NCBI GenBank assembly: GCA_048940645.1
Contig: JBHLOI010000017.1
Span: 1-63,511, forward strand
Reading direction: 5' to 3'
Source of the DNA: Promethearchaeota archaeon
Lineage (GTDB): Archaea; Asgardarchaeota; Lokiarchaeia; Sigyniarchaeales; SOKP01
DNA: 63,511 bases
The translations under genes and the position numbers were made by a program. The stretch's first letter is position 1, and the number at the start of each line of letters is the position of its first letter. The notes beneath the pieces were generated by a model that searched no databases, had not been told where the DNA came from, and saw only the letters and a list, made by a program, of their open reading frames with translations. Positions 39,783 through 49,757 of this stretch are shown here, one piece after another.

Positions 39783-40163
39783 TTAAACCTTTCCGTTCAA
39801 TTTTATCGCAAAAGTTTTGAGAAAAGATAATGCTTTAGGTGGATTTGCTTGAGGCATGGCATATGCTACAAGTATACCTCCTTGAAAAGGAGCGATTATT
39901 ACATGTCCCATCACATCATTGTTAGTTCCAATAATTCCTTCAGGAGCAGTTTCAACAACTGAAAATTCTAAATTGTTAAAGACAAAAGAGCGGGCTCCTT
40001 TAATGGCATTTAATATATTGTTCGTTTGATTGGTTAGATCCCAATTTTCTGTCTGGAAAAGTATAACCCCCGTATCAGACACAACTGCGACTGAAGCAAT
40101 TTTTATATTAGTCTCGAGGGCGGTAATTCCCAATTCATCAATGATCTTTTTTATTTCATCCAT
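39783..40163 (-). CDS. Asgard (Loki-type) profilin
   Basis: I..IIDEL...VAVVSDTGVILFQTENWDL...F.VVE...E..IGTN....GHVIIAPF.GG.LVAY..P.A.P...L..L..FA.KL follows the Loki profilin pattern (QTENW, IGTN, GH). Confidence 0.9.
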   Translation of the reverse strand: MDEIKKIIDELGITALETNIKIASVAVVSDTGVILFQTENWDLTNQTNNILNAIKGARSFVFNNLEFSVVETAPEGIIGTNNDVMGHVIIAPFQGGILVAYAMPQANPPKALSFLKTFAIKLNGKV

Positions 40164-46013: not shown

Positions 46014-46163
46014 TTGCCGATTGATAAAGAATTACAAGAAGAAATCAAGAAAGGGGTTTCTCTCCAAAAGGTTGATGAGGAAGAAATAAGAAAACGAGAA
46101 GAAGAAAAAAAGAAACGCATGGCAGAACTTGAAAAGATCAAAGCAGCCTTAGGAGAAAAATAA
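46014..46163 (+). CDS. Unannotated 49-aa protein with WH2-like actin-binding motif
   Basis: TTG start after purine-rich GGAGATGAGGA; MPIDKELQEEIKKGVSLQKVDEEEIRKREEEKKKRMAELEKIKAALGEK*. Confidence 0.75.
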   Translation: MPIDKELQEEIKKGVSLQKVDEEEIRKREEEKKKRMAELEKIKAALGEK

Positions 46164-48430: not shown

Positions 48431-48526
48431 TTATGATTTAATAAAAAACTAAAAAATATAATTATGTAATACCATAAAAAACATACTAATAATTAATATA
48501 AATTATTTTTTTATAAATTGATTAAT

Positions 48527-49150
48527 ATGAGTCCAATTATTACACATGAAGATGAGCTTGAATTAGCAAGAACAGAAAAAGAGGTAGTGAGTCATATAAA
48601 ACGACTAGCAAAAGCACAAAATGACCTCATAAACTCTCAAAAAAAGTATGCTGAGAATCTTGCTAAAGCAAATCTAGTAAGAGAAATGTTAAATAGATCG
48701 TTTAGAGACGTCATAAAGCAGATGCAAACCTTACTTAGAGAGAAGAAATCAAATGTTCAAGATGAAGAAGTAAATTTATATCAAGATATTATACATAAAA
48801 ACGATGGTTATATCGAAGTAAACAATAAATATATTGATGCAATAAAAAATCTTACATTAAAAAAAGAATATTTTATTGAGAAAAAAAATGAATTCGCGGA
48901 TGCTTTAAGTGATGTAGCCGATAAAAGGAGTGCCGTTATTAAAAAAGCTTTAAGTGTTGAAAAAATGAAGAATAAATTAGTTGAAGGTGAAAAGTTAAAA
49001 AAGTTAGATTCTGAATTCAATGACTATCAAAGAGATTTTGATATAGCTAGGGATGTACTAATAAAGAAAGTTCATCAATTTTTAGAGGTAAGAAACGAGT
49101 TAGATGATTTATGGACGATTTTAAAAGATTCAGTATCTAAATCAAGCTAA
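48527..49150 (+). CDS. All-helical coiled-coil protein, BAR-domain-like
   Basis: About 207 aa, three long amphipathic helices, Lys-rich tip (KKALSVEKMKNK...EKLKKL); BAR call is inference. Confidence 0.6.
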   Translation: MSPIITHEDELELARTEKEVVSHIKRLAKAQNDLINSQKKYAENLAKANLVREMLNRSFRDVIKQMQTLLREKKSNVQDEEVNLYQDIIHKNDGYIEVNNKYIDAIKNLTLKKEYFIEKKNEFADALSDVADKRSAVIKKALSVEKMKNKLVEGEKLKKLDSEFNDYQRDFDIARDVLIKKVHQFLEVRNELDDLWTILKDSVSKSS

Positions 49151-49292
49151 TTTAATCTTTTTATATTTTTTTATACTTTTTATTGGGAAGTGTCTTAATT
49201 CCTACGGGCTTAAATTTATTAAACAATTCAAATATATAATTATTAGAAAAATTATTGGATAATTCTTTAATAATAAAAATTGAGAATAAAAA

Positions 49293-49757
49293 ATGGCAGA
49301 AGAATTCGCAAATTTCATGCAAGAAACTAGAAGGGCTCCTCTTGAAGAGAAATTAAACGCATTTGGAGATATAGTTGAAAGGATGATGTCAATGATTCTC
49401 AGAATTCCTGATCTAGTTGATCAGTCTTTATTAACTCTTAACCAAAAAATTTCAACTTTAGAATCCCAAATTAATACATTGAATAATAATATGGCATCAA
49501 TTAAATCAACTGGAGGAAATATAGCCCCTATGATATCAGCCCCCACTGCTCCTAGCAGTATACCTCCTCCACCTGGCGGTCCACCTAGCACTTCGTCTCC
49601 TGGAGGTTCAAGACCTCCTCCTGGCGGTCCTCCCCCACCTCCCGGCGGTCCACCTGGAGGACCTGGAGCTAATCGCCCTGCCAGTCCGATTAGTTTAAGA
49701 GGCGCTATAATGAGTGAACTTAAACAACTATTTAATAAACGCAAGACCCAAGGTTAA
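49293..49757 (+). CDS. Coiled-coil / polyproline protein with C-terminal WH2- or VASP-FAB-like helix
   Basis: Heptads LNQKISTLESQINTLNNNM; IPPPPGGPP, RPPPGGPPPPPGGPPGGPG; terminal LRGAIMSELKQLFNKRK. Confidence 0.8.
   Translation: MAEEFANFMQETRRAPLEEKLNAFGDIVERMMSMILRIPDLVDQSLLTLNQKISTLESQINTLNNNMASIKSTGGNIAPMISAPTAPSSIPPPPGGPPSTSSPGGSRPPPGGPPPPPGGPPGGPGANRPASPISLRGAIMSELKQLFNKRKTQG

Follow-up and report, generated by a model that had tools for sequence, protein, structure and literature searches.

A predicted BAR-like dimeric protein family and its proline-rich gene neighbour in a Loki order of Asgard archaea

The window, by which we mean the whole stretch of 63,511 nucleotides analysed here, is AT-rich (26–33% G+C) and carries on its forward strand a gene for an all-helical protein of 207 aa, followed in the same orientation by a gene for a shorter, proline-rich protein. 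We refer to the former as BARL, for BAR-like helical protein gene, and to the latter as PRO, for proline-rich partner gene, both names being coined here. The features of the two genes, with the evidence on which each was delimited, are as follows.

48527–49150, + strand: BARL gene, encoding the 207-aa BAR-like helical protein, stop codon included (open reading frame, translation, homologues of the same length)
48527–48544, + strand: BARL N-terminal peptide M-S-P-I-I-T, residues 1–6 (conservation, predicted dimer interface)
48545–48742, + strand: BARL helix 1, residues 7–72, the predicted antiparallel dimer seam (AlphaFold2 secondary structure, dimer contacts)
48761–48973, + strand: BARL helix 2, residues 79–149 (AlphaFold2 model)
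48926–49000, + strand: most conserved BARL stretch, residues 134–158, running from the basic end of helix 2 through the turn into helix 3 (invariant columns, local charge)
48986–49144, + strand: BARL helix 3, residues 154–206, the shortest helix, bearing W196 (AlphaFold2 model)
49151–49292, no strand assigned: spacer of 142 nt between BARL and PRO, with a T-rich run right after the BARL stop codon (sequence read directly)
49293–49757, + strand: PRO gene, encoding 154 aa with a helical N-terminal region, a Gly/Pro-rich arm and an invariant C-terminal helix (translation, alignment A3)
49692–49745, + strand: invariant PRO C-terminal peptide S-L-R-x-x-I-M-x-E-L-K-x-L-F-x-K-R-K, residues 134–151 (alignment A3)

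The open reading frame containing BARL (48518–49150, + strand) opens at a TTG codon, and the ATG at 48527 yields the 207-aa product. Since all homologues begin at the equivalent M-[SC]-P-I-I-T, the gene of about 207 aa that the sequence-only reading of this DNA had placed at 48527–49150 was correctly delimited, as is also borne out by the translation. The three segments quoted in that reading are present as well, LARTEKEVV at residues 13–21, KYIDAIKNL at residues 101–109 and KMKNK...EKLKKLDSEF at residues 146–164. Two antisense open reading frames on the minus strand, at 48808–49020 and 49421–49744, are shadows of real genes, and a spurious gene opposite the proline-rich tract of PRO, on the antisense strand, was predicted by one gene caller. 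Given that BARL has 372 homologues and that the antisense frames are mere shadows, its reading frame is a real gene, beyond chance.

These 372 homologues were retrieved from a search of 5.8 billion proteins, and the 120 of them listed have lengths of 206–214 aa and identities of 70–96%; most are unnamed or annotated as 'hypothetical' and come from metagenome-assembled genomes labelled Promethearchaeota, Lokiarchaeota or similar. When 1.84 billion cluster representatives were searched exhaustively with a profile, only 40 BARL clusters emerged. In the alignment of 32 close homologues (alignment A1), the mean column identity is 81%, and residues P3, I4, I5 and T6 of the N-terminal peptide are invariant. 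In the diverse alignment built from the 40 clusters (alignment A2), where identities fall to 17%, W196 is the sole invariant residue. We found no published description of the BARL family in the literature.

Among 400 Asgard genomes, BARL was detected in 141, all but one of them within the order to which the window belongs. The order comprises families that we number f1 to f4, and BARL is present in 121 of 134 genomes of f1, in the single genome of f2, in all 14 of f3 and in three of the four of f4. Outside the order, the only detection in these 400 genomes is a weak partial match (genome G051, E 6e-5). BARL is usually present in single copy, as it is in the genome of the window, and a second, divergent paralogue occurs in part of family f3. 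No longer or fused form of BARL was found, which by the search tool's own statement is weak evidence; one 344-aa protein (P0139) bears an N-terminal extension that is uninformative. A distant branch is formed by three proteins of 208–209 aa (P0153, P0157 and P0160), which align with BARL over the full length (hhalign probability 98.3%, E 1e-14) and are true relatives. Scanning contigs from genomes and metagenomes for sequence patterns confirmed no further members of this branch.

Sequence and profile searches connected BARL to no BAR family. Pfam assigned no family to the protein of the window, for which the best E-value was 0.016, far under threshold, and it gave no BAR-clan family at E ≤ 1 among all 8 families reported for this protein or, for 16 members of the BARL family, among the best 25 of 130 families. 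The sub-threshold matches of the BARL members are to families of coiled-coil type, namely FlgN, COG6_N, Sec10_N, Mod_r and Syntaxin_2. Sequence and profile searches against the PDB returned only designed coiled coils and IncA, with amphiphysin at E 0.25. When the BARL profile was aligned by hhalign with 22–26 FAM92-like BAR proteins of Loki archaea, the probability was 3%, and 0.6% for a reversed-sequence control. The Pfam models for Vps5, FAM92 and BAR gave no match in the genome of the window (89.6% complete), and over the 400 Asgard genomes the Vps5 model gave 11 weak matches, one of them above the cut-off and none overlapping BARL. The sequence-only reading had seen in the three segments a resemblance to eisosome Pil1/Lsp1 and to sorting nexins; as there is no BAR-clan match in Pfam and the hhalign probability is 3%, this by-eye likeness does not constitute evidence of homology, and no search of this kind supports it.

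The AlphaFold2 model of BARL, computed from alignment A1, has a mean pLDDT of 90.2 and a pTM of 0.74, and consists of exactly three long helices at residues 7–72, 79–149 and 154–206, with lengths of 66, 71 and 53 residues. The earlier description of the product as all-helical with three long helices thus holds in the model, which is an antiparallel coiled coil of about 200 aa. Foldseek found no match to this model in the PDB at E ≤ 0.001, the top of its list being occupied by arfaptin, Lsp1 and SNX1 at E of about 1e-2; in a second look at this list, ranks 1–21 were all BAR domains. In an unbiased VIA-align search of 48,161 chains, BAR domains accounted for eight of the ten best matches, with arfaptin first (Z 13.0, rmsd 4.0 Å over 186 residues), SNX5 among them (Z 12.7, rmsd 2.9 Å over 172 residues), and further matches to Lsp1 (Z 11.7), Vps5 (11.3), FAM92A1 (11.2), SNX1 (11.1), I-BARa (11.1) and ACAP1 (11.0). 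A designed bundle came next after the BAR domains at Z 10.8, and the non-BAR matches at Z 10–10.8 comprised de novo bundles, an Smc coiled coil, SipB and bMERB. Vipp1/PspA, ESCRT-III and CdvA were also considered as counterparts of BARL and were rejected, their matches being partial and, at Z 9.1–9.3, beneath those of the BAR domains. Among the language-model neighbours of BARL, those that bear a family name all belong to the BAR clan, with scores of 0.81–0.85 that count as leads only. A shape search of the ESM Atlas returned heterogeneous matches (DUF632, XopK, a BAR cluster at TM 0.67 and a PcsB coiled coil) that do not discriminate between folds.

The weight of these matches can be gauged from a positive control, a Pfam-detectable FAM92-like BAR protein of Loki archaea of about 215 aa that was folded and searched in the same way. 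Its model (pLDDT 92.9) has helices at residues 2–53, 57–127 and 138–205, that is, of 52, 71 and 68 residues with a short helix 1, and it matched arfaptin at Z 17.6 (rmsd 2.8 Å over 197 residues), FAM92A1 at Z 16.4 and SNX5 at Z 16.2 (rmsd 1.6 Å over 184 residues), with 36 BAR-type matches ahead of the first other fold. Since the scores of BARL are weaker than those of the control, BARL is BAR-like, though plainly to a lesser degree than a true Asgard BAR protein. Its modelled helix layout, with a long helix 1 and a short helix 3, is also unlike that of the true BAR proteins of the same organisms. The BAR fold proposed earlier therefore stands in part: the model is a three-helix coiled coil that, of all solved structures, matches BAR domains best, but its Z of 13.0 lies at the level of helical-bundle noise (17.6 for the control), and the modelling partly supports calling the fold BAR-like without making it a proven BAR domain.

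This leaves room for a different reading, in which BARL is a generic coiled-coil adaptor, a protein–protein hub with no membrane role akin to the small helical subunits of eukaryotic complexes of BLOC-1, WASH or Ska type, and its resemblance to BAR domains is merely the common geometry of long three-helix bundles. Several observations suit such a hub. By the stated caveat of VIA-align, Z values below about 13 are common for long helical bundles by arrangement alone, and BARL, at 13.0, sits at that level, with non-BAR bundles following at Z 10–10.8. BARL has no profile relation to BAR families, the weak Pfam noise of its members is of coiled-coil type throughout, and its helix lengths depart from those of the control BAR protein. 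The very high conservation of the entire surface, with the 81% column identity mentioned above, would also fit a protein with several partners. On the other hand, the first 21 ranks of the second look contain BAR domains and nothing else, and the family-bearing language-model neighbours are all of the BAR clan. Together with what follows on pairing and charge, we regard the hub as the main rival account of BARL, though less likely than not.

BARL is predicted to form a homodimer. The dimer score was 0.76 in all three runs, the best of three controls reaching 0.16, and the score exceeds a pass mark that was attained by 20 of 30 proteins solved as one-chain pairs and by one of 23 solved as single chains. 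At least 83% of contacts were shared between runs, with a partner pLDDT of at least 84. In the predicted interface, helix 1 contacts helix 1' over residues 13–66 at positions whose sum is about 78, which places the dyad near residue 39 and makes the pairing antiparallel; helix 2 also takes part with its beginning and helix 3 with its C-terminal two-thirds, and residue 6 of the conserved N-terminal peptide and residues 9–10 lie within the interface. The hydrophobic heptad positions of helix 1 that are conserved in the family all fall inside it. Antiparallel pairing centred on helix 1 is the BAR mode of dimerization, and its prediction here speaks against the hub, although the passing score may be owed in part to the model's memory of BAR-like dimers. 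Because helix 1 spans the whole molecule and is contacted along its full length, the dimer would form a compact bundle, about 11 nm in length, with fully overlapped helix 1 and no long BAR arms, rather than a winged crescent. Of the crescent-shaped antiparallel six-helix dimer that had been anticipated, the antiparallel, helix 1-centred pairing is thus retained in the prediction (0.76 against 0.16), while the contacts and helix lengths imply a compact shape.

The distribution of charge is likewise two-sided. In the most conserved stretch of the protein, R134, K139, K146, K148 and K156, around the turn between helices 2 and 3, are invariant in the 32 close homologues, G154 is likewise invariant in alignment A1, and the local net charge peaks at residues 134–158. 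Further basic residues lie at the loop between helices 1 and 2, where R71 is conserved and K73 and K74 are present in this copy. The basic tip described in the sequence-only reading therefore exists as a conserved cluster at the turn between helices 2 and 3, but overall the protein is close to neutral, with a net charge of +1 here and of -6 to +4 across the family. A net charge of about 0 would suit the hub, whereas a conserved basic cluster at the ends of the bundle would not be expected of it. There is no amphipathic N-terminal helix of the N-BAR type in BARL, residues 1–18 being acidic with a hydrophobic moment of 0.07.

Considering these data together, BARL is best explained as a separate family of BAR-like fold, an orphan at the sequence level, limited to one Loki order of Asgard archaea. 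Even if the BAR reading fails, BARL would rank among the most conserved uncharacterized proteins specific to this order and would likely be a dimeric hub.

The second gene, PRO, starts 142 nt downstream of BARL, at 49293, and the co-oriented proline-rich neighbour announced in the sequence-only reading is thus present. In eight diverse members of the PRO family, S134, L135, I139, M140, E142, L143, K144, L146, K149 and R150 are invariant, and the consensus of the terminal peptide is S-L-[RK]-x-x-I-M-x-E-L-K-x-L-x-x-K-R. This peptide is moderately amphipathic (hydrophobic moment 0.27–0.39) and basic (net charge +2 to +4). A design of WH2 type, which had been attributed to the neighbour, found no support, since Pfam WH2 was absent at E ≤ 1 from the PRO protein of the window (P0002; all 10 families) and from each of the eight diverse members (best 25 of 29 families). 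The PRO family occurs in 270 of the 400 Asgard genomes and is thus far more widespread than BARL, which indicates that PRO does not depend on BARL. In the f2 genome G130, a 448-aa protein combines a GTPase domain of Gtr1/RagA and Arf type with the complete PRO module (coiled coil, proline-rich arm, terminal peptide) as its C-terminal part.

The arrangement of the two genes differs across the order. In family f1, BARL is followed by PRO in 37 of the 37 loci that extend far enough, with spacers of 118–326 nt. Two f3 genomes (G131 and G132) have PRO followed by BARL, family f4 has PRO, a Roadblock/LC7-like gene and then BARL, and the two genes are convergent in G130 and at one further locus (L096). 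The Roadblock assignment in f4 rests on language-model features (0.90) and on structure (TM 0.78–0.83). In three other f3 genomes that are single contigs (G135, G138 and G143), BARL and PRO lie 200–400 kb apart, and in most other genomes of that clade they are on different contigs. In G138 (contig C1), BARL occupies 3020645–3021262, its paralogue 3452537–3453139 and PRO 2628799–2629236. No fused form of the pair was found. The spacers of 118–326 nt in the 37 loci and the T-rich run after the BARL stop codon make it probable that each gene has its own promoter and transcript.

It could be argued that this adjacency is purely historical, BARL and PRO being members of a stable housekeeping block (Pelota, radical-SAM, BARL, PRO, a 575-aa gene and Elf1) whose products do no joint work. 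The entire block is syntenic in f1, the promoters are probably separate, the genes are 200–400 kb apart in three single-contig genomes, and PRO is widespread without BARL, all of which would agree with such an origin. However, the pair persists while its surroundings and its own order and orientation change, with four arrangements in four families; this would be difficult to account for unless linkage were under selection, so that we consider a purely historical origin distinctly unlikely. Conservation of the adjacency, which had been proposed as a check, was found in the sense that the pair is kept through four arrangements, and it is lost in the clade of G135, G138 and G143. That the pair has outlasted four rearrangements points to a functional tie between BARL and PRO, and the separated clade, together with the much wider range of PRO, speaks against this tie being obligatory.

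The genes around the distant relatives of BARL raise another possibility, that BARL is a helical factor associated with ESCRT, either a BAR-like accessory or one resembling the ESCRT-I stalk. The gene of P0157 lies directly upstream of a Vps4 gene (MIT-AAA-Vps4_C) and a gene for an ESCRT-II subunit (locus L091), two BARL members have weak Pfam matches to Mod_r (Vps37) with a best E-value of 0.002, and a link between BAR and ESCRT-I has been reported in Thorarchaeia (PMC10307638). Yet ESCRT genes occur in only one of the five distant-branch contexts, being absent at L093, L108, L090 and the contig of P0192, and none is present at any of the order-level BARL loci examined; nor does any Snf7, Vps28 or Vps37 family rise above the Pfam threshold. 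As the other four distant-branch contexts have no ESCRT genes, the P0157–Vps4 context counts as a lead only, an ESCRT neighbourhood was rejected as a general feature of BARL, and we regard an ESCRT-associated role as very improbable.

The reading that we prefer, to which we give a probability of about 0.45, is that BARL is an antiparallel, dimeric, BAR-like scaffold that acts with PRO at the cell cortex, where it presents the proline-rich arms and terminal helices of its partner. Each BARL chain would be a three-helix coiled coil, and two identical chains, paired antiparallel, would make a small, rigid, dimeric scaffold that works together with the PRO product. By docking the helical N-terminus of PRO, the dimer would bring at least two proline-rich arms, each with its terminal helix, to the cortex, where the basic ends of BARL helices 2 and 3, the basic terminal helix of PRO, or both, might contact the membrane or Lokiactin. 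Binding of BARL to PRO, binding to membranes or sensing of their curvature, and a link to actin or a small GTPase are the conjectural parts of this scheme, and a role of BARL in cell protrusions may be envisaged on the same terms.

A bolder version can be formulated, in which the BARL dimer docks the PRO coiled coil and the terminal helix of PRO binds Lokiactin or the membrane, so that the pair would be a two-gene prokaryotic counterpart of couplers of the BAR–Ena/VASP or IRSp53 type, possibly controlled by a small GTPase. A hint of GTPase control comes from the Roadblock gene that stands between the pair in f4 and from the fusion of the PRO module to a Gtr/Arf-like GTPase in G130. The two-gene design of MIM/IRSp53 type suggested in the sequence-only reading holds to the extent that a helical dimer is predicted and the linked gene is proline-rich, but Pfam WH2 is missing and I-BAR structures score lower than classical BAR domains. 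We consider this specific coupler unlikely; if true, it would help to build the actin-filled protrusions of these cells.

To our knowledge, the known actin regulators of Loki archaea are essentially profilins and gelsolins, and we know of no tie between actin and the membrane in these organisms. BARL and PRO are a concrete, bench-testable candidate pair for the question of how actin and membrane are connected. The filament-nucleation machinery of Asgard archaea was described as 'yet to be discovered' in 2022 (PMC9433394), and cultured Loki archaea display dynamic, Lokiactin-dependent protrusions and crawl (PMC13716822).

Among known systems, the closest in shape to BARL is the BAR domain of arfaptin-2 (PDB 1I49, 4DCN), its best match, which likewise consists of about 200 aa in three long antiparallel helices. 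Arfaptin forms an antiparallel dimer. The two differ in that identity is 8% with no profile match, in that the predicted BARL dimer is fully overlapped, and in that the match of BARL is 4–5 Z units weaker than that of the true Loki BAR protein to the same chain. The sorting nexins SNX1 and SNX5 and Vps5, of retromer and ESCPE-1, resemble BARL at Z 12.7 for SNX5 and 11.3 for Vps5, but BARL has no PX domain, and the Pfam Vps5 model finds nothing in the genome of the window and almost only sub-threshold matches across the phylum. Vps5-BAR proteins have been described in Asgard archaea, and those of Thorarchaeia are frequently fused to Vps28 (Eme et al. 2023, PMC10307638). Eisosome Pil1 and Lsp1 match at Z 11.7–12.0, with an rmsd of 2.7–3.5 Å over 166 residues, while sharing 11–13% identity with BARL and no profile match. 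The I-BAR (IMD) proteins IRSp53 and MIM offer a parallel in composition, with a helical dimer, a proline-rich arm and a short terminal helix that are here spread over two genes, although their structures, at Z 9.5–11.1, score lower against BARL than classical BAR domains.

The comparison that bears most directly on Asgard biology is that with FAM92. FAM92A/CIBAR1 matches BARL at Z 12.7 (9UHD) and 11.2 (8CEG), and of the named language-model neighbours of BARL the closest is a FAM92-like cluster from Promethearchaeota (0.85). The FAM92-like BAR proteins of Loki archaea have a similar length (about 215 aa) and are carried by the same organisms, but they differ from BARL in profile (hhalign 3%) and in helix lengths (52/71/68 against 66/71/53 residues). 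Among them is a tandem form of 451 aa, and their occurrence is patchy, in 45 of 400 Asgard genomes and not found in that of the window, whereas BARL is near-universal in its order. There are therefore no fewer than two unrelated BAR-like families in Loki archaea. A co-immunoprecipitation with Lokiactin from L. ossiferum yielded two 'BAR-domain proteins', both short of significance (PMC13716822), and when proteomic studies list proteins under this name, the two families should be kept apart.

In both loci of family f4, one of the four families of the window's own order, the proline-rich partner gene (PRO) is separated from the BAR-like gene (BARL) by a single 150-aa gene of Roadblock/LC7/MglB likeness:

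L043:2552-3007, plus strand: Roadblock/LC7/MglB-like gene
L044:6731-7183, minus strand: Roadblock/LC7/MglB-like gene

The likeness was recognized from language-model features (0.90) and from structural comparison (TM 0.78-0.83), while a Pfam search with this gene returned no match. Its position between the two genes hints that the BARL-PRO pair may be regulated by a small GTPase. In family f2, a PRO-type module is itself joined to a small GTPase domain, forming the C-terminal part of a single 448-aa protein (genome G130, L053:523-1869). The GTPase domain is of Gtr1/RagA and Arf type (Pfam E 2.5e-23 and 2.2e-20), and the module comprises a coiled coil, a proline-rich arm and a terminal peptide, S-L-R-x-x-I-M-E-E-L-R-x-x-F-A-K-R-R.

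Two single-contig genomes of genus g12 lack an intact pair. In G188, BARL is reduced to its first 58 residues (C1:1210568-1210741) and PRO is absent, and G189 lacks both genes; these losses are consistent with removal of the adjacent pair by single deletions.

The strand opposite the proline-rich tract of PRO forms an open poly-glycine frame (window 49421-49744, minus strand). On one public metagenome contig, the gene caller annotated this 180-aa antisense shadow (L005:5645-6187, minus strand) and missed the real plus-strand PRO gene. Elsewhere in the window lies a further small ORF:

46014-46163, plus strand: 49-50-aa ORF flanked by the acetyltransferase and Pelota genes

A 50-aa gene is called at the same position in four relatives (L001, L003, L004 and L005). 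The sequence-only reading of this ORF as WH2 or thymosin found no support in Pfam, where the sole match was a chance one to DUF7067 (E 0.007). The sequence-only reading also proposed a 126-aa ORF (39783-40163, minus strand), 8.4 kb upstream of BARL and on the opposite strand, as a candidate profilin.

A second and far more divergent BARL paralogue (profile E 1e-15 to 1e-28) is present in some genomes of family f3, in unrelated neighbourhoods:

L040:5995-6636, minus strand: divergent BARL paralogue
L041:5986-6621, minus strand: divergent BARL paralogue
L042:5992-6621, minus strand: divergent BARL paralogue

P0157, a 208-aa protein, is a distant but genuine relative of the BARL family, and its gene immediately precedes Vps4 and one ESCRT-II subunit gene (L091:421-3556); ESCRT genes were not found in four other contexts of its branch. 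Loki archaea additionally encode a second BAR family, unrelated to BARL (L060-L089 and L057). These proteins, undetected in the window's own genome, are present in 45 of the 400 Asgard genomes; they are ~215 aa long and match Pfam FAM92, and in the 6.04-Mb single-contig genome G138 two such FAM92-like domains stand in tandem within one 451-aa protein (L057:811-2166).
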